A stretch of 64,000 bases of DNA from an uncultured Acidimicrobiia bacterium (GTDB taxonomy: Bacteria > Acidobacteriota > Terriglobia > Versatilivoradales > Versatilivoraceae): assembly GCA_963791795.1 (NCBI GenBank), contig CAWBTP010000020.1, positions 837-64,836 on the forward strand, read 5' to 3'. The notes under the pieces were generated by a model. The model saw nothing but the letters and a program-made list of their open reading frames with translations, ran no database searches and had not been told where the DNA came from. Positions 3,746 to 64,000 of the stretch are shown here, in pieces (the first letter of the stretch is position 1; every line of letters begins with the position of its first letter). Position numbers and translations under genes: made by a program.

Positions 3746-5159
3746 GTCCGATCCGGAACACCGAATCCCGCTTCCCCGCGATTCCATCTTCATGGGTTCA
3801 GGGCCTGTTCCAGAGCGGGGGTCGGAGGTTTAATAAAGACGGAAACCGGTGGGCTTTAAGCGTGGGTGGTTTCAGACATCATTGATAGTGACATTGGCCG
3901 GCGGAAACTGGAGAACCTGGTCTCCAGGCCGGATCTGGTACACCAGGAGGGTTTGTTGGTTTCTCCGCGTAGTTAAGGCCGCTCCGGTAACCCCAACGAT
4001 GGTGCCTATTTCCTTGCCGTCGTGGCGTTGTACGCGATCTTGCCGATGTTAGCCTACATCTCAAGCTGGAGCGACTCATCGGCCGGCCGAGCACAAGTCT
4101 GGCAGAGACAAGCCACCAGAATCCAACCGCTCAACAGGATCGTTCGACTGTCCTCCGTTCGCACTCTACCTCACCCACCCGCTCGTGGACTCGATTCGGT
4201 CAGGCGTCCGGTCGCTGACATAGTTGAATATGCCAGTCTCCCTAAAACAACCTGAAGTTTTCACAGTCCACGCAGCGGGCCTGATCATCAACACCGCGTT
4301 CATCAGCTCGATGGCAAGCCACGACTCCAGCGTCACGCCCGCCCGAACGCCGACGCACGGATAATACCGACCTGACTGCAGTTCAAAGTCTATCTCCTCA
4401 AGACTCTCCGCACGGACTTCTCAGGCAGGGTGATGGTCGAGGTAGGCTAAACCCACGCGACAGACCGGGCATACCCGTCGTCACCCCACCAAGAAGCCCC
4501 CCTTGATGATTTGTCGATAGCCCGAACTCCTGATCGGATCGTTTTCTCGCTCCCTGCGCTCAACGATTCGCCTGTCCTGAACCGATCTCGCACGATTGCA
4601 CCGCGTGCAGCCCGCCCGAAGCTCCCATCAACCGCAGCTTCAGACTTTCGTAGAGCGGTTCACCCGCCAGCGCCTGGAACGTTCACCGCCATCACCTCAA
4701 TGGCCGCTCCAAGCGAATCCCCCTGCTTGCGGGATTCCTGATGAGTTCACCGGCTCTTGGTTGCGAATTTCGCATCCCACGAGTAGATCTCCGCACTCTC
4801 CATCTTGGCCTCGATTTCCTGAAGCTCTGCGAGCCGAACTTATTGGTTTCGCGCAGTACGCAGGACCTGTTCGAAGTGGCTCGCAAGCGTCTTGGCAGCC
4901 TTGTGCGGGCCGACTTGGATGATCGAGGAAGAACCACGTACGGAAGTGTTCATCAGAAAGAAGCGGGCGATGGATCCAGCGATCACATCGAAGATCGGGA
5001 CCAATAACTTGAACGTCCACCGCCCCGCGGTTCGGTAAAGCCCTGACTGATGAAACTTGACCAGATCGTGTGGCCCGGCCTCACCTCACCGGTTCGACCG
5101 GCAAACTGCTCGTAATCCTTCGCTTTCTTGGCTGCCGACAAGACCGAGCCGCAATGGGC

Positions 5160-12591: not shown

Positions 12592-12718
12592 GCCCAACAA
12601 CCGGCTGAAGCTGACCCGGCTTACGCGTTCTTTTTGGAAACGGCAGCGAGACTTTCCAAGGTTCTCTCCGGCTCTCCAGCAGTGGGAAGCCGGGCAGCTT
12701 AGCCGAGAGACGTTAGGC
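12592..12718 (+). other. attC-like site (long class, 127 bp): GCCCAAC ... GTTAGGC
   Basis: Core-site pair, with a long imperfect stem (CCGGCTGAAGCTGACCCGGCTTACGCG pairs with CAGCAGTGGGAAGCCGGGCAGCTTAGCCG) and a central GGAAAC...TTTCC hairpin. The next ATG is at 12726. Confidence 0.7.
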
Positions 12719-12725
12719 ATCGCTT

Positions 12726-13376: not shown

Positions 13377-13499
13377 CGAAAGGCTTGCAGCGAACCCAGG
13401 TTGACGCGTTTTTTTTGGAAACGGCGGTAGAATTCTTCCAAACACGCTCTGCGTCCCCAGCAGTGGGAGGCGGGGCGGCTTAGCTGGGAATCGTTAAGC
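13371..13499 (+). other. attC-like site (long class): GTCTAAC ... GTTAAGC
   Basis: Near-identical to the 12592 element. The stop codon is embedded in RYYYAAC. The next ATG is at 13523 with an SD. Confidence 0.7.
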
Positions 13500-13522
13500 G
13501 GACGAAAGGCAGAAGGACGTCG

Positions 13523-16891: not shown

Positions 16892-17002
16892 AGACTAAGG
16901 AGCGCCAGGTGTATGAGACTCGATCGCAGCGGCTGCTGTGGCGCCCGAACGGAGGCGGCTTTCGCGCCGGTTCTCACGGCGGTGAATACGGGTTCCATGT
17001 CG

Positions 17003-17130
17003 GCCGAACCTTCAGCCGAAGCTGCCCCGGCTTAATCGTTCTTTTTGGAAACGGCAGTGAAGATTTAGAAGGTTGTGCTCTGCCTCCACAGCAGTGGGAA
17101 GCCGGGCAGCTTAGCCGTGAGTCGTTAGGC
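17003..17130 (+). other. attC-like site (long class): GCCGAAC ... GTTAGGC
   Basis: Third near-identical copy of the 127-bp element. Confidence 0.65.
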
Positions 17131-17359
17131 CGGCAACGGACATCGATGTGGTCGGTTGCGGCGACGATATCCCACAGGCATGGGTCGGCCGAGCAATGAG
17201 ACTTGTGCTGGTCCCAGCCTTGGTGACCCGTATATGACCCGTGCGCCGGTCGCGGAAGATAGTGCAGGCCGGCTCGAACTGCTGCCGGCCTTCGCCATGG
17301 CTCTCATGCGGTACGGCACGTGAGGGCAGTACGATCCGAATCTTCCAAGGAGTATCGCG

Positions 17360-20128: not shown

Positions 20129-20255
20129 TGCCTAACCCGCGGCTGAAGTTGAGCCGGCTGATGCGTTCTTCTTGGAAACAGTTGCGAAAGTCTCCAAAGT
20201 TCTCTCCGGCTCGACAGCAGTGGGAAGCCGGCCAGCTTAGCCGTGAGTCGTTCGA
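20129..20255 (+). other. attC-like site (long class): GCCTAAC ... GTTCGAC
   Basis: Fourth copy of the 127-bp element, with a canonical inverse core. Confidence 0.65.
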
Positions 20256-20326
20256 CCTCTCTCGGCACTTCGTCTCCATGATATCCTAGCAACAAAGATC
20301 TCCCCTAGTTGGGTTGGAGAATTGGC

Positions 20327-23505: not shown

Positions 23506-23633
23506 GCTTAACAAGCCGGCTGAAGCTGGCCCGGTTTATGCATTTTGTTTGGAAACGCCGCAGGAACTCTCCAAAGTTCCCTCCGACTCCCCGGCAGTGG
23601 GAAACCGGGCAGCTTAGCCGTGAGGCGTTAGGA
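23506..23633 (+). other. attC-like site (long class): GCTTAAC ... GTTAGGA
   Basis: Fifth copy of the 127-bp element. The next ATG is at 23670 with an AAGGAGA SD. Confidence 0.65.
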
Positions 23634-23669
23634 GTTCTCTCCCGGCCCCCTCTGTGCAAGGAGAATTCT

Positions 23670-59000: not shown

Positions 59001-59283
59001 GGTTGACCTCCAGTTTGATCGGATTTGTCACCAGCTTCTTGAAACCGCTTATTTCAGCAGTGACGACATATTCGCCGATCGGCAAAAACGGGATCGTGTA
59101 GAATCCCGCATCGTTAGACTGGGCAGTATGTTCGATCTTGGTACCCTGGTTCGTCGCGAGAACCTTCACATTAGGCACCAGCGCACCGCTCTGATCCGAA
59201 ACAGTGCCGGTTAAGGTTGCTGTTACGGTCTGGGCTATTGCAGGGGCGCCAGATTGAGCGCCAAGCCCAGAACCAACAAGCAA
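56080..59283 (-). CDS. TonB-dependent receptor with N-terminal carboxypeptidase-regulatory-like domain and plug
   Basis: 1067 aa ending in a C-terminal F (the ORF ends ...ALKFHF), with the plug and CarbopepD_reg-like N-terminus. An ATG at 59311 encodes MKNPARILVACLLV in a different frame, suggesting a 1-bp indel in the signal peptide region. Confidence 0.85.
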   Translation of the reverse strand: MLVGSGLGAQSGAPAIAQTVTATLTGTVSDQSGALVPNVKVLATNQGTKIEHTAQSNDAGFYTIPFLPIGEYVVTAEISGFKKLVTNPIKLEVNQIARVDLKMELGEVTEVVDVTGVAPVLQTESTTVGQVISGNTIGNLLLNGRNFQQLTLIAPGALSPNLRGFGGAEADARPYVNGNREQGNAFLLDGVSVDETIDNRIGYRPNIDALAEFKIETNNSSAEFGNVTGAVTNMSTKSGTNEFHGNVFEFFRNDAMDANRWENNKGGAPKSKLRLNIFGGTVGGPIVKDKLFFFGAYQETRQRTGGGTTASVAPIEWRRGDLSSISTVIRDPLTGQPFPNNQIPVARFSPVARALLSDTTLYPLATRLGTNVTNNYATQTADAVDNRQFDAKIDAKLSNADSIWGRYSAGFLDGDGIRGTLPATITTARSRRPQNFVLTWSRTISPNTINEARIGFNRATVVSDYNDWAGVGNANAKIGIAGSQAIPGLSAIRIGQGLTDVGTAFTNERNYTNTFHYGDNLSIARGKHFFKMGGQWQRYQQNRYYPGNNGLLGFFAYNVTSFTGSQFADFLLDQLSQKGIGSTSGTWGHRQNRIGLFLQDDFKVKNNLTLNLGMRWEYTSPVVEVKDRQSNFDIVTGRQLFAGVDGNSRALYEPYKKGFEPRVGFAWTPSNKLVVRAGYGITQYMEGTGSNLRLPLNPPFFSEADISYDATSGPGSAVKGFTDVIVRSEPSGLIRIWDPKLRPQFTQQYNFTLEYLLDSKTSLTAGYVGHKATHLVDPRDWNQPLPDPGPTSTWRPLQQRRPLYSARPLVTQVSGTDSSATSDYNSLQVSARRRLSQGFEFLASYTLSKTLTDNLGYYGSPGVNAPSAYWANAYNRLGDRGLSFFDATHNFVWSGTYDLPFGKGRAFGNGWTGVTNAILGGWNVSSIIALHSGFPITLQANDVSLQNSRAGGRPNRLDGGSGKLDNPTPDRWLDISPYVLPATGTFGNSGNSSERAPGFGNWDFALGKKFNMTESKYFDFRAEFFNATNHPSYGAPGRNISAPNAFGIITATVNEPRILEFALKFHF

Positions 59284-59686
59284 GCCACAAGAATCCTGGC
59301 TGGGTTCTTCATGATTTGTCTCTCCTTTTGGACTTTGGTACGAGTAAAGTACAAGTAGTGCTCTGGTTGGCGCGGATTGGACTGATTCGCCCTAGTGGTC
59401 GAATCGTCTTAAGCCTCAAGCGCAGAACATGCTGTTGTGAATGAGACTCGAAGCTTCCAGCGGACCTCGGCTACTCGCGTGATTGCATTACTTGCAAGAG
59501 CCTCTCCAAAGCAGCTGGATCGCTGCAAGGATCTGTCAGGATGAAACTTAATCGCGAAATCAGGGATCGGCTGTCTGTGCAGAAAACTGGTCCAAAAATC
59601 CGGCTTTTAGGATTGTATTTCTTGAAGTTCGGATCACGACTGCCCGATGCTGCGTAATGAGCTGCACTCCACACTAGAACTTAGCA

Positions 59687-60919
59687 GTGATCGCCGACGA
59701 CCTAACCGGCGCCTGCGACACCGCTTGTCAATTTACTCCTTATGGATTCCGCCCAGAGGTTGTGCATTCAGTTGCAGGCAATTTGCGCCAGCACCACTGT
59801 CTGGTCCTTAATTCGGAATCGCGAAAGGACGAACCCGGGGTAGCGCATCAAAAGGTCTTCGACTTTGCGGTGGCACTCATGAGGGCCGGGTACTTGCCGT
59901 TCTATAAGAAACTGGACTCCACGCTTAAAGGTCCTTGGTGCGCCGAACTGGCTGCTATGGCAAAAGCGGTAAGGCCAGAGATCGTTGTGGTTGCGCCGGC
60001 GTTTCCTGCGTGGGGACGAACAACGGTCCAGGGAGTTCAGTGCGTCCAAGGACGGCCCGTTGGAGAGTCAAGGTTTCATACCCTTCCCCACACAGACACG
60101 TCACCGGCGACGGAACCCGGAAATCTGATTCAGGCGCTCCAAGGTCAATTTGGAAAGCGCGTTCGTCATTTTCGGCGCGCTGCGCTCAAGAGGGGCCCAG
60201 CGGCACTTGCGAAGGAGATGCTTACAGCCAGATTCGAGGGATTCCCGTTCCTGGTATTCGACGCGGAGCTAAACGAAGATCTCAAAACAATTGTTCTCGC
60301 CGGATGCCGTTTGGAAACCAGAATTCTGTGGGCTGGGTCTGGAGGACTAGCCCGATCCTTGCCGCGAGGTTGGGGGCTATCCGCACAACCCCCCAACAGC
60401 CATTCTCACTTTTCGTGTGCGCACTCGCTTGTGATCAACGGTAGCTTCAACCCAGCCAACAAGGAACAACTGGCTTGCTTGGAACATGCAGGTACGACCC
60501 TCTGTTGGATTGAGGACGAAGATGCGGATGACCACAACTTGTGTCTCCGGAAGGTTGAGAGCCTGCTGACAGTGCTGGAGGGCGGTGGCGACGTAGCTCT
60601 CAGCGTGCGTTTGAACAAGCCTGTTCGGTCGGCGAATCATCTGCAGAAGCTCCAGGACGCCCTCCAGTTCGTCTCAGCGCGTTGCCTGGCCGCAAAGGGC
60701 AACGTCGGCATGATCCTGATTGGTGGCGACACGGCCATCAAGATCTACCGGAGTCTTGATGCAGCGGCCATCCGCATCGAAGGCGAGGTTCAGCCGGGAG
60801 TTCCACACGGGCGCTGGGTGGGCGGACGATTCAGCGAGCTGCCAGTGGTCACAAAAGCGGGAGGCTTCGGACAGGCAGATACCTTGGTGACGGCAGTTGC
60901 TTTTCTGAAAGGAAAATAA
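59687..60919 (+). CDS. four-carbon acid sugar kinase family protein (OtnK/DUF1537-DUF1357)
   Basis: The N-terminal IADDLTGACD motif and the C-terminal domain resemble 3-oxo-tetronate kinase family proteins. GTG start. Confidence 0.7.
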   Translation: MIADDLTGACDTACQFTPYGFRPEVVHSVAGNLRQHHCLVLNSESRKDEPGVAHQKVFDFAVALMRAGYLPFYKKLDSTLKGPWCAELAAMAKAVRPEIVVVAPAFPAWGRTTVQGVQCVQGRPVGESRFHTLPHTDTSPATEPGNLIQALQGQFGKRVRHFRRAALKRGPAALAKEMLTARFEGFPFLVFDAELNEDLKTIVLAGCRLETRILWAGSGGLARSLPRGWGLSAQPPNSHSHFSCAHSLVINGSFNPANKEQLACLEHAGTTLCWIEDEDADDHNLCLRKVESLLTVLEGGGDVALSVRLNKPVRSANHLQKLQDALQFVSARCLAAKGNVGMILIGGDTAIKIYRSLDAAAIRIEGEVQPGVPHGRWVGGRFSELPVVTKAGGFGQADTLVTAVAFLKGK

Positions 60920-61333: not shown

Positions 61334-62326
61334 ATGTCGAAACCAAAGATAGGAATCACTCTCGGCGATGTGGCGGGGGTCGGACCCGAAGTAGCAGTTA
61401 AGGCGCTGCTCAACCCCACGGTCACCGCGCGGTGCACACCGATTCTGATAGGCGAGCTATCCATCGTTCGCCACTACGCCGAGCGTCTCGCGCCCGAGCG
61501 CCAAGTGCGAGTCGTCGATCGCCCGGCGGAGGCAGCCTCCGAGACCGCAGATCTGCAGATTCTGGATCTGAAAAACATTCAGTTTTCCAAAGTCAAACTG
61601 GGCGAAGTCGATATGGCCTGCGGAAAGGCTGCACTGGACTACATCCGCGCCGGAGTCAACCTTTGTCTCAACAAAGAACTCGACGCGCTGGTCACTGGGC
61701 CGATTCACAAAGAAGCGGCCCAATTGGCGGGCATCAACGCTCCCGGTCACACGGAATATCTGGCAGCGTTGTGCGGCGTGCCGGAAGTGAGAATGCTGCT
61801 TGTGGTTGATCACTTGCGAGCCATGCACATCAGCACACATCTCAGCCTGCGTAAAGCCCTGGACTGCGTGACGAAAGAGCGAATCCTCGAAACAATTCAC
61901 TACGGAGTTGGAGCTCTCAAACAACTGCGAATCGAGAAGGGACGAATCGGTGTGGCAGGGCTGAATCCCCACGCCGGGGAAGGTGGGTTGTTCGGACGCG
62001 AGGAAATCGAAGAAGTCGCGCCGGCGGTAGCGGCGGCACGCGCTGAAGGGCTGGCAGTTTCAGGTCCGGTGCCTCCAGACACGATCTTTCACCGCATGAA
62101 CCAGCGCGAGTTCGACCTGGTCATCGCTCTCTATCACGACCAGGGGCATATTCCACTGAAGCTGATGGGGTTTGACAGCGGTGTGAACGTGACGATTGGA
62201 CTGCCCATCATTCGCACGTCGGTAGACCACGGTACTGCGTTCGATATTGCTGGGAAACTCAAGGCTAACCCGGAAAGCATGGTCAAAGCCATCGAGCTGG
62301 CATGTGTGATGTCGAGTGATCAGTGA
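61334..62326 (+). CDS. pdxA: PdxA-family NAD-dependent 4-hydroxythreonine-4-phosphate / 4-phospho-D-threonate dehydrogenase
   Basis: MSKPKIGITLGDVAGVGPE start, and the HDQGHIP / metal-binding region. Confidence 0.85.
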   Translation: MSKPKIGITLGDVAGVGPEVAVKALLNPTVTARCTPILIGELSIVRHYAERLAPERQVRVVDRPAEAASETADLQILDLKNIQFSKVKLGEVDMACGKAALDYIRAGVNLCLNKELDALVTGPIHKEAAQLAGINAPGHTEYLAALCGVPEVRMLLVVDHLRAMHISTHLSLRKALDCVTKERILETIHYGVGALKQLRIEKGRIGVAGLNPHAGEGGLFGREEIEEVAPAVAAARAEGLAVSGPVPPDTIFHRMNQREFDLVIALYHDQGHIPLKLMGFDSGVNVTIGLPIIRTSVDHGTAFDIAGKLKANPESMVKAIELACVMSSDQ

Positions 62327-62815
62327 TGAGTACTGAGTACTGAGTACTGAGTACTGAGTGCATAGAGTGCTGAGTAGCGGACGAATATGAATCGATTCGA
62401 GGACATCGTGGCGTGGCAGAAAGCCAGGGAGTTGACGGCACGATATCTATCGCTTTCAAAGCAAGAGTAATTGCGCAAGAGATTTTGCGCTGAGAGATCA
62501 GATGGTGCGGGCGGCGGTCTCGATCATGGCAAACATCGCGGAAGGATTTGAAAGGGGCAGATCTGAGTGAGTTTCACCAATTCTTGTCAGTGGCCAAAGC
62601 ATCTTGCGCAGAACTCCGATCACATCTCTATGTAAGCTCTGGATGCTGGGTACTGTCCAAAGAAGAGTTCAGATGCTCTGAAACTGAAGGCCGAAGAGGT
62701 AGGTAAGATACTCGGAGGTCTCAGGCAGTCCGTCGAGCGAAAACGCGACGAATGACAGATAACGTTAACACTCAGTTGGTCCTCAGTACCGTACTCATCA
62801 CTCAGTACTCAGTAC
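62327..62815. mobile_element. low-GC insert flanked by inverted tandem heptamer repeats (GTACTGA x5 / TCAGTAC x3), carrying a frameshifted four-helix-bundle (23S rRNA IVS / Avd-like, PF05635-type) gene
   Basis: TGAGTACTGAGTACTGAGTACTGAGTACTGAGTG at 62331 and ACTCAGTACTCAGTAC at ~62795. The internal [20 protein letters not shown]...[22 protein letters not shown] then shifts to EFHQFLSVAKASCAELRSHLYV. Confidence 0.55.
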
Positions 62816-62823
62816 CCATCACC

Positions 62824-64000
62824 TTACAGAAGGCTTGGCAAATTGCCCTTTCCGTCGAAAGGCAACTCACCTAACCGTTCAAGTACCTTAAGGTGAGGTT
62901 TGCTTCCAATTTCGTCCAGCAATGCTTCGGTAGCGATGAACTGATCCAGCTTCAGCGTGTTCTTGATCCAAATCATGCGGCACGCCTCGACGCTATTGCC
63001 GCACGTTGAGAATGCGGTCTCCATGGCTTCACGGTCCGTGTCGAAGGTTACTGGTACGCGTGCGGCCTCGACGTTGGTGCTGGTGATGGCGTTGATGTAG
63101 GTGGGCTTGAAATCGATCTTGTCGACCAGCCTCCGGCTGACCAGGTCGGCCAGACCAATGCCCACTGCATTGCCGTAGGACTCCTTGGACAGATCACGAA
63201 CAAAGATTCGAGTAAACCAAGGTTTGACTGGCGCTCGCTCCCTCTGGCTCACGTTGCGACCGATGACGTTTGTGTCCATGCCAGCGCCGCTGATGTTCTT
63301 CCCCATCTCATCCACCACAAGCACATCGCCCTGGTCGAAGGGGATGCGCGCCAGACTGGTCTTGGCCAGTGCCAGCAACCGTTTTTCACTATTCTCGATC
63401 TCTGGAGTCAGCATGGCTTCGATTGCAGCAGTCTCATCGTAGGCGTTCTCAACGATTCCAAGACCAAACAGTATCTTGCAATTCGACCGGACAACCCGTG
63501 CGACGTTGGTGATCACCGTGTAGTAGCCGTGCTTGATATTGGCGCGATGATACTGGATGGCCCCGGTGTGCTTTCCCAAGCCGATCGCCATCATCTTGCA
63601 GAGTCCGCTCTCGATATCTCCATCGAAATCCGTGTGCGGCTTCACCCGGTTCACCACGACCACGTGGTCTGCTTCCAGGGCATAGTTATCGAGAAACACG
63701 GGAATGCCCTGAGGTGTCTCTCCAACCTGGGTTGTTTCCATCGTCGCTCGTATCGGCGCACCCATGCTGCTTTCCGTGATTCCGTAGTGCTCCAGTACCA
63801 ATCTCTGTCCCTCCGCCGTTCCTCCCCCATGACTTCCCATGGCTGGAATGATGAAAGGGCGCGCACCGAGCTTTCGAAGCTCATCGACGACTGCCCGAAG
63901 GATAACGGCGATGTTCGCCACACCTCGGCTACCACCCGTAATCGCGACGTTCTGTCCGGGTTTTACCTTGCCGTCCAAGCCCAGCTTGCCAATCTGCTGC
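62824..64000 (-). CDS. LarA-like (lactate racemase N-terminal / DUF2088-type) domain protein, 5' end beyond window
   Basis: 384 aa visible. Family assignment is by overall resemblance and is uncertain. Confidence 0.4.
   Translation of the reverse strand, partial: QQIGKLGLDGKVKPGQNVAITGGSRGVANIAVILRAVVDELRKLGARPFIIPAMGSHGGGTAEGQRLVLEHYGITESSMGAPIRATMETTQVGETPQGIPVFLDNYALEADHVVVVNRVKPHTDFDGDIESGLCKMMAIGLGKHTGAIQYHRANIKHGYYTVITNVARVVRSNCKILFGLGIVENAYDETAAIEAMLTPEIENSEKRLLALAKTSLARIPFDQGDVLVVDEMGKNISGAGMDTNVIGRNVSQRERAPVKPWFTRIFVRDLSKESYGNAVGIGLADLVSRRLVDKIDFKPTYINAITSTNVEAARVPVTFDTDREAMETAFSTCGNSVEACRMIWIKNTLKLDQFIATEALLDEIGSKPHLKVLERLGELPFDGKGNLPSLL

Follow-up and report, generated by a model that had tools for sequence, protein, structure and literature searches.

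A four-helix-bundle pseudogene enclosed by inverted heptamer arrays between pdxA and a LarA-like gene: a probable decayed three-part cassette

The pdxA/larA spacer of the window

The DNA analysed here is a stretch of 64,000 nucleotides (hereafter the window; contig CAWBTP010000020.1, positions 837 to 64,836 of the forward strand, assembly GCA_963791795.1) from an uncultured bacterium whose lineage is placed in Acidobacteria by its PdxA homologues. Near the end of the window, the spacer between two convergent genes was found to contain the remains of a gene for a four-helix-bundle (4HB) protein, enclosed by two inverted arrays of tandem heptamers. The gene on the plus strand (61334..62326) belongs to the pdxA family (4-hydroxythreonine-4-phosphate dehydrogenase) by its match to PF04166 in the list of open reading frames (ORFs), and its homologues were up to 91% identical. 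The gene on the minus strand (62824..64000, continuing past the window end; ORF list, TAA stop codon at 62824-62826) is LarA-like, its Lar_N (PF09861) label being the one annotated on the syntenic genes of four related contigs (L121-L123 and L219). The two genes leave a spacer of 497 bp.

The left (5′) arm was found at 62314..62378 on the plus strand by Tandem Repeats Finder, as the direct-repeat families D1/D2, as the inverted pairs I1-I5 and by pattern enrichment. Tandem Repeats Finder reported an array of period 7 at 62327-62376 with the unit TGAGTAC, 6.9 copies and 86% matches; 4 perfect TGAGTAC/GTACTGA units were found at 62330-62357 with degenerate units on either side, where a preliminary description of this DNA had counted five tandem copies of GTACTGA. 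The right (3′) arm (62772..62823, listed on the plus strand; Tandem Repeats Finder, inverted pair I1) was found to contain the degenerate inverse heptamers ACTCAGT/TCAGTAC/ACTCATC, the reported array being of period 7 at 62782-62815 with the unit CTCAGTA, 5.1 copies and 72% matches, and so more degenerate. The three TCAGTAC units previously described on this side were present, but they were not contiguous. The two arrays were found to be mutually inverted, with arms of 32 nt at 62323-62354 and 62791-62822 that are 91% complementary and 436 nt apart, and the boundary of inverted heptamer arrays claimed for the pseudogene was thereby borne out. When (GTACTGA)2 was searched with up to 2 mismatches, 9 matches were found in the 64-kb window, all of them at the 4HB locus, against 0.13 expected from shuffled sequence.

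The outer left array was found to reach 62314, so that the final codons of pdxA and its TGA stop codon (62324-62326) are themselves array sequence and pdxA terminates on the TGA of the left array. The right array stops 1-2 nt short of the larA stop codon. Because the end of pdxA is the left array and the right array abuts the larA stop, the cassette formed by arrays and gene takes up the whole spacer between the two stop codons. The GC content of 62327-62822 was 0.50 against 0.58 for the whole window, and the dip already noted in the preliminary description is thus real, if modest. The arms joined by a short linker gave a predicted fold of -60.1 kcal/mol (z=-6.4), and they were also paired in the predicted fold of the full 541 nt. 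The left arm, read inward, contained TGA in all three frames, and on the minus strand the right arm contained GTACTGA-type units that place TGA in every frame in the direction of larA.

No sigma-70-type promoter and no canonical terminator were predicted within the cassette of the window, the single terminator-like site being no more than shuffled sequences yield, and no second copy of the cassette was found in the 64 kb. The Rfam scan of the locus returned no family at threshold and no rRNA. The matches below threshold, at 62307-62408, 62319-62375 and 62781-62823, concerned Clostridiales-1 and a pair of archaeal C/D-box sRNA models and are all judged to be due to chance, those to the C/D-box models probably arising from the UGAUGA (C box) and CUGA (D box) strings of the repeats; assignment of the locus to a known RNA family was rejected.

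Between the arrays, the three reading frames were found to spell a 4HB protein jointly. The pseudogene occupies 62387..62755 on the plus strand, with the ATG at 62387 and the original TGA at 62753-62755, as delimited by three-frame translation and by Pfam and NCBIfam matches. Its frame-corrected translation of 122 aa (62387-62752) matched PF05635 at 1.2e-33 (115.9 bits, cutoff 33.8), as the preliminary description had predicted, and TIGR02436 at 1.8e-31 (108.6 bits, cutoff 24). The gene therefore belongs to the PF05635/TIGR02436 family of four-helix-bundle proteins, the 23S rRNA intervening-sequence protein family. By sequence, one orthologue (P0001) also matched two solved four-helix-bundle structures, 2GSC (9.7e-13) and 2RLD. 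The reading frame was found to be interrupted not by the single frameshift first described but by seven 1-bp indels relative to the intact orthologue of contig L121 (62441, 62453, 62480, 62563, 62637, 62653 and 62671); the longest ORF from the original ATG was 27 aa, and no intact bundle ORF of about 120 aa was found. The PADLOC defence models gave no match for three intact 4HB relatives, and membership of a defence system was rejected.

The closest intact 4HB homologues were 88% (P0001), 79% (P0010) and 77-78% (P0014) identical, and each was found between the PdxA and Lar_N genes. The three orthologue contigs (L121-L123) shared the order of an outer-membrane protein, an SBD_N/NBD_C kinase, PdxA, 4HB, Lar_N, anti-sigma and sigma-70 genes, and all three contained the same kind of array on both sides of the 4HB gene (alignment A1). 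The ratio of nonsynonymous to synonymous substitution (dN/dS) of the orthologous 4HB ORFs was 0.09-0.10 with synonymous sites near saturation, and these values point to strong purifying selection on the 4HB protein in the relatives.

A fourth contig with the same synteny (L219, PdxA 77% identical) was found to keep both arrays in a spacer of 251 bp, and the DNA between them contained only a remnant of the 4HB gene, reversed in orientation and lacking part of its interior. From the states of the window and of L219 together, the cassette has been flipped at least once and has decayed at least twice independently, with the arms persisting. Two more distant contigs (L220 and L221) were found to have a different gene order and no cassette beside pdxA. 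None of these contigs was accepted as an empty pdxA/larA site, L219 being rejected for its flipped and deleted remnant and L220 and L221 for their gene order.

As judged from these comparisons, the cassette has long been present in the pdxA/larA spacer of this Acidobacteria lineage and is not a recent insert, and the window copy appears to have been inactivated recently by the seven 1-bp indels with both arms persisting. The preliminary description had seen a small module inserted between pdxA and the LarA-like gene; the exact filling of the spacer, and the insertion of other members of the class in Nostoc and pglX as described below, agree with it, but insertion at this site is not recent, as intact orthologues occupy the same position. 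On L221, inverted arrays of 7-8-nt units (CACGAAT/GACACGAAG ... CTTCGTC/CCTTCGTG) were also found at 4560-4990, on either side of about 330 bp in which no 4HB gene was detected; this may be a cassette whose gene has decayed completely or one that carries a different cargo.

Flanking arrays at related genes and at empty sites

The paralogues of about 68-70% identity were found at an epimerase/glycosyltransferase pair (polysaccharide), at pilin-like genes and in an S-adenosylmethionine (AdoMet) decarboxylase/spermine synthase (polyamine) cluster, and every one of them contained (GTGATGA)n-type arrays before the gene followed by the inverse (TCATCAC)n after it. A metagenome sample was then composed of 80 non-redundant 4HB loci, 47-66% identical to the query and with no pair above 90% identity, and flanks were counted in the 69 loci that had 120 bp or more of sequence on each side. 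Tandem arrays were found upstream in 63/69, downstream in 62/69 and on both sides in 56/69. The period of 7 was dominant (97 arrays), and further arrays had periods of 14, 21 and 28. Arrays of the period-7 family occupied both sides in 41/69 loci, and the same arrays were found in 9.1% of background windows of 165 bp.

The units were found to vary by locus (TGAGTGA, GGACTGA, GTGCTGA, GAGTAAC, GTCCAAA, GGTTCAA, GTTTCAA, AGTGAAA and GTGCGAG among them). The complementarity of the two flanks exceeded all 183 position-shifted controls in 63% of the loci, and in 72 loci the arms of one locus scored a median of 18 against each other (cis) and of 8 against the arms of other loci (trans; p=1.6e-27). 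The comparison indicates that the repeat units differ between loci and match within one locus. A common polarity was also found on whichever strand the gene lies: 5′ arms were rich in G and poor in C, and AGT recurred periodically in 53% of these arrays; 3′ arms were rich in C, with ACT recurring periodically in 54%. The Rfam search placed 0/80 of the sampled 4HB loci in rRNA.

Flanking arrays were found as well at 4HB genes of 32-47% identity, not always two-sided or inverted and, in one high-GC case, with longer units. Among cultured bacteria, the 4HB gene of Calothrix NIES-22 was found to contain GGGTGTA and TACACCC units at its flanks, and that of Riemerella anatipestifer (K6T44_RS09915) GGTTCAA and TTGAACC units. 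In plasmid pANA02 of Anabaena sp. 90 (L234 1180-1548, gene ANA_RS23230), a 4HB cassette with the arms (GGTGACA)n/(TGTCACC)n was found between cas6 and cas4 of a type I-D CRISPR-cas operon. Overall, the three-part cassette of the window was seen again in about 100 relatives. The PF05635/TIGR02436 genes are very numerous in genomes and metagenomes, with more than 7,900 clusters at E <= 1e-10 in one search.

The Nostoc plasmids pNPUN02 (Nostoc punctiforme PCC 73102, 4HB gene NPUN_RS35280) and pNsp_c were found to contain the same small operon, and each provides the empty site for the cassette of the other. In pNPUN02 the cassette lies between genes B and C, where the same junction in pNsp_c reads TAG-gtt-ATG; in pNsp_c a different cassette lies between genes C and D, where the same junction in pNPUN02 reads TAA-ttt-ATG. 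The extra DNA was found to be bounded by the arrays in both plasmids, (TCAGGAG)n...(CTCCTGA)n in pNPUN02 and (GGGAAAA)n...(TTTTCCC)n in pNsp_c. The junctions of the pNPUN02 site were TTCTAGAT (L230 1140-1150) and TTCTGATT (L230 1555-1562), against TTCTAGGTT at the empty site (L231 835-845), and may represent an imperfect target duplication of about 8 bp.

A 4HB gene was also found inside the pglX methyltransferase gene of the bacteriophage exclusion system BREX-1 in three viral contigs (L223 103-1617, L224 3-2477 and L227 57-2471). The pglX of Ligilactobacillus, 63% identical to the host gene, is contiguous and without a segment of about 140 aa, and this segment was found to start and end with translated arrays in all three contigs, with FSDQWVVVSGQ from the 5′ array and LITNHYH from the 3′ array in L223 and L224. 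The host frame (+2) of pglX was open across the cassette in 3/3, against 3/82 for other 4HB genes. On L227, a second and distant PF05635 gene (2499-2888, E=2.3e-16) was found directly after the pglX stop codon.

Occupied and empty sites, when aligned, show that the arrays and the ORF insert as a single unit, be it in the space between two genes, within an operon or even within an ORF.

Possible working of the arms and rival explanations

The element at 62314-62823 is best read as a decayed three-part cassette, in which inverted tandem heptamers form the two arms of a long stem and a 4HB gene occupies its loop, and a probability of about 0.6 is given to this reading. Pairing of the arms would give a duplex of about 45 bp. 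On the model of the 23S rRNA intervening sequences that carry S23p, this duplex would act as an RNase III-type processing structure or as an insulating structure separating the cassette from host transcripts. The 7-nt period, together with a TGA, TAG or TAA in the unit, would also provide stops in all frames for ribosomes entering from either flank, since the stop codon of such a unit falls into each frame in turn when the period is not a multiple of three. All three frames were found to be closed in 46% and 40% of the arrays read inward, against 16% and 14% read outward.

Several results were found to weigh against such a working of the arms. Arrays with no inward stop in any frame made up 21-38%, so that a stop function is not universal. 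Mismatches in the arms were 84 of the sense-strand G·U type against 123 of the A·C type (antisense G·U; p=0.008), and this asymmetry, tried as evidence that the sense RNA folds, leaned slightly the other way and gave no support for such folding. The pglX gene was read through its cassette in 3/3 loci, and obligatory cleavage of the transcript would be pointless there because the host ORF reads across the cassette. The orientation of neighbouring genes was unbiased, with 67-69% on the same strand against a usual level of about 70%, and a promoter-less hitch-hiker co-oriented with the upstream gene was rejected for want of a bias above that level.

As the wobble, read-through and orientation results weaken a simple RNA model, a DNA-level role of the arms becomes a serious rival or complement to it, the candidates being terminal repeats, hairpin DNA and inversion substrates. 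The cassette might then be a mobile element at the DNA level, with the arrays as terminal inverted repeats or as hairpin/cruciform DNA served by a recombinase or transposase in trans and with the RNA stem incidental. Such an element would fit the finding that the arrays are the exact termini of the insertion when the Nostoc and pglX loci are compared with their empty sites, the lack of a sense-RNA signal in the wobble test and the possible target duplication at the pNPUN02 site. The in-place flip between the lineages of the window and of L219 is likewise what recombination between inverted repeats would give. The arm sequences, on the other hand, vary widely among copies, unlike the inverted repeats of a sequence-specific transposase. 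No consistently adjacent transposase or integrase was found at the orthologue and paralogue loci, one integrase being present beside the Calothrix copy, and the single copy in the window and the stability of the syntenic copy over dS >1 do not suggest mobility. A DNA-level element of this kind is compatible with the three-part cassette but is itself considered rather unlikely.

It is improbable that the seven frameshifts are assembly or sequencing errors and that the 4HB gene of the window is really intact. The window and L121 were found to be 96.15% identical over 5.6 kb, and the 371 bp of the 4HB ORF contained 7 indels and 14 substitutions. This ratio of indels to substitutions is high and might suggest noise, and indel noise may affect such contigs, as three 1-bp indels were found in L121 in a kinase gene whose window copy is intact. 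The indels are nevertheless uneven, with 0 in the 1177 bp of larA and 1 in the 994 bp of pdxA, the remainder being in non-coding DNA. A non-coding stretch upstream of the kinase gene (59244-59680), taken as the neutral yardstick, contained about 23 indel events in about 440 bp with 60 substitutions, a ratio like that of the 4HB ORF. None of the seven indels was shared by L121, L122 or L123, and the same gene has decayed independently in L219. The pattern argues for a recent and real loss of function of the 4HB gene of the window, and not for uniform assembly noise. The kinase gene concerned (SBD_N/NBD_C) is intact in the window (59687-60919, 410 aa) and split by the three 1-bp indels in L121 (about 1372-2532); either each genome has lost a different gene or L121 has assembly indels.

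The arrays themselves were found to be far from exclusive to 4HB genes. At least 120 stretches of (GTACTGA)3 were found in species-representative genomes, the taxa including Planctomycetes, Acidobacteria, Gemmatimonadota, Chloroflexi, Bacteroidota, Acidimicrobiia and Nostoc. Orientation of the arrays was told by CTGAG versus CTCAG, as GTACTGA and its reverse complement differ at 1/7 positions. Many of these loci contained a single array, and about 28 of 120 (read from the listing) contained an array followed by an inverse array, mostly 16-115 nt apart and with no cargo between. Two further facts stand against a strict tie between arrays and 4HB genes: a 4HB gene was present in only 5 of the at least 120 loci, adjacent to the array in 4, and inverted GTACTGA-type arrays were found to flank a gene for a CheY-like receiver (L043 7469-7953) and a gene of 138 aa (L029 431-946), so that the arrays are not exclusive to 4HB genes. 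Because many array loci hold no 4HB gene, the arrays must outlive the gene or exist without it, L219 being an intermediate stage.

The same facts, with 116 array loci in many phyla without an adjacent 4HB gene, would be expected if the arrays were slippage microsatellites or terminator-like hairpins of host intergenic DNA that lie beside 4HB genes by coincidence. This is very improbable, and for the 4HB class it is already contradicted: both-sided arrays at 56 of 69 independent 4HB loci compare with about 7% expected from background density, the arms were complementary specifically in cis, the arrays travel with the ORF at the empty sites, and the window locus has no canonical terminator among its predictions. 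The preliminary description had allowed for a common microsatellite, which holds for the many places in which (GTACTGA)3 was found and fails in that most 4HB genes carry flanking arrays.

The lead of the preliminary description to Avd and a diversity-generating retroelement (DGR), by which the locus would be a DGR remnant with a decayed Avd accessory gene, is hardly credible and largely refuted: PF05635 and bAvd are homologous families (PMC10053308) and share the four-helix-bundle fold, and weak profile matches of the window translation to PF22296 and NF033474 were found, but these remained below the Avd cutoffs (27 bits against 40 and 23.6 bits against 80, respectively), no reverse transcriptase was found among 25 of the 54 Pfam families listed for the 50 ORFs of the window, no YxDD or GNxTSQ motif in any of its frames, no template/variable-type direct repeat in the window, which ends 1.2 kb downstream of the locus, and no reverse transcriptase within 4 kb of the orthologous loci, where the neighbours were Lar_N, sigma-70 and anti-sigma genes only.

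A separate intergenic repeat family, unrelated to the cassette, was also present in the window. Its five copies (12592-12724, 13447-13500, 17002-17131, 20130-20262 and 23507-23639) were found within 11 kb, with lengths of 55-133 nt, 74-89% identity and the core ...CAGCAGTGGGAAGCCGGGCAGCTTAGCCGTGAG...; the family looks like a repetitive extragenic palindrome (REP) or a miniature inverted-repeat transposable element (MITE).

Known relatives and meaning of the cassette

The closest known relative of the cassette is the 23S rRNA intervening sequence (IVS) with an S23p ORF, as found in Leptospira, Coxiella burnetii and in the Xanthomonas type (PMC4990558). The Coxiella IVS contains an S23p (PF05635) ORF and a stem of 28-bp terminal inverted repeats that is cut by RNase III, with 2-3 tandem heptamers (GACAGAT) of variable copy number before the ORF and the cleavage site at the first heptamer; its ORF decays while the RNA element persists, and excision by RNase III is known only for rRNA IVSs (PMC4990558). 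The element of the window shares with it the PF05635 ORF in the loop of a terminal-inverted-repeat stem, here with the 32-nt arms, the heptamers just upstream of the ORF and the decay of the ORF within a persisting element. It differs in its position between convergent protein-coding genes instead of 23S rRNA helix 25 or 45, in the absence of its 80 sampled relatives from rRNA, in the tandem heptamers of both arms and in an ORF that is under purifying selection in the orthologues.

Other known repeats were found to be less similar. MITEs and other elements with terminal inverted repeats (TIRs) are likewise short units bounded by inverted repeats, lie between genes and have copies in many contexts, whereas the arms of the cassette are tandem repeats whose sequence varies by copy, a conserved protein gene is carried, and no clear target-site duplication or partner transposase was identified for the cassette. 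The short tandemly repeated repetitive (STRR) heptanucleotide arrays of cyanobacteria, reportedly described by Mazel and colleagues in 1990 with the classical units CCCCAGT, TTGGTCA and CAACAGT, are also tandem heptamers of intergenic DNA, and a function is not known for either kind of array. The 4HB genes of Nostoc, Calothrix and Anabaena were found to be flanked by the heptamers TCAGGAG, GGGTGTA and GGTGACA, respectively, and the pNsp_c copy by a shorter-period array of the GGGAAAA type, but the classical STRR units are not those seen at 4HB genes. To our knowledge, no such repeat arrays have been described for avd.

Taken jointly, the results suggest, tentatively and at somewhat less than even odds, that intervening cassettes made up of a 4HB gene and co-varying inverted heptamer arms are a widespread class. 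The class would span Acidobacteria, Cyanobacteria and Bacteroidota, with bare arrays of the unit of the window in more phyla, and the classical 23S rRNA intervening sequences would be its rRNA-resident minority. Its members would invade intergenic spacers, operons (CRISPR-cas, polysaccharide) and ORFs (the BREX pglX that is read through), with arms that carry frame-independent stop codons. Loss of the gene may leave orphan heptamer arrays behind, which may explain some of the cyanobacterial STRR-type and similar arrays, and the Avd-like protein may have the arms of its own cassette as its target.

Prior knowledge covers the protein family, the rRNA intervening sequence and the Coxiella heptamers. 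No description of a non-rRNA three-part cassette, of the cis co-variation of the arms, of unit insertion into operons or ORFs or of the stop-codon polarity was found in the literature searched, which did not extend to most subscription journals and database family notes, so that a prior description is possible.

We know of no function for the PF05635/TIGR02436 genes outside the Avd of DGRs, and the cassette view offers a testable handle on what these genes are. It bears on why rRNA intervening sequences carry an ORF, on the origin of some bacterial heptamer microsatellite arrays and on the presence of 4HB genes inside operons and defence genes such as BREX pglX and the cas6/cas4 spacer. In annotation work, the boundaries of a cassette can be read from its arms, which also account for unusual C-terminal tails and stop codons in adjacent genes, the pdxA of the window being an example.

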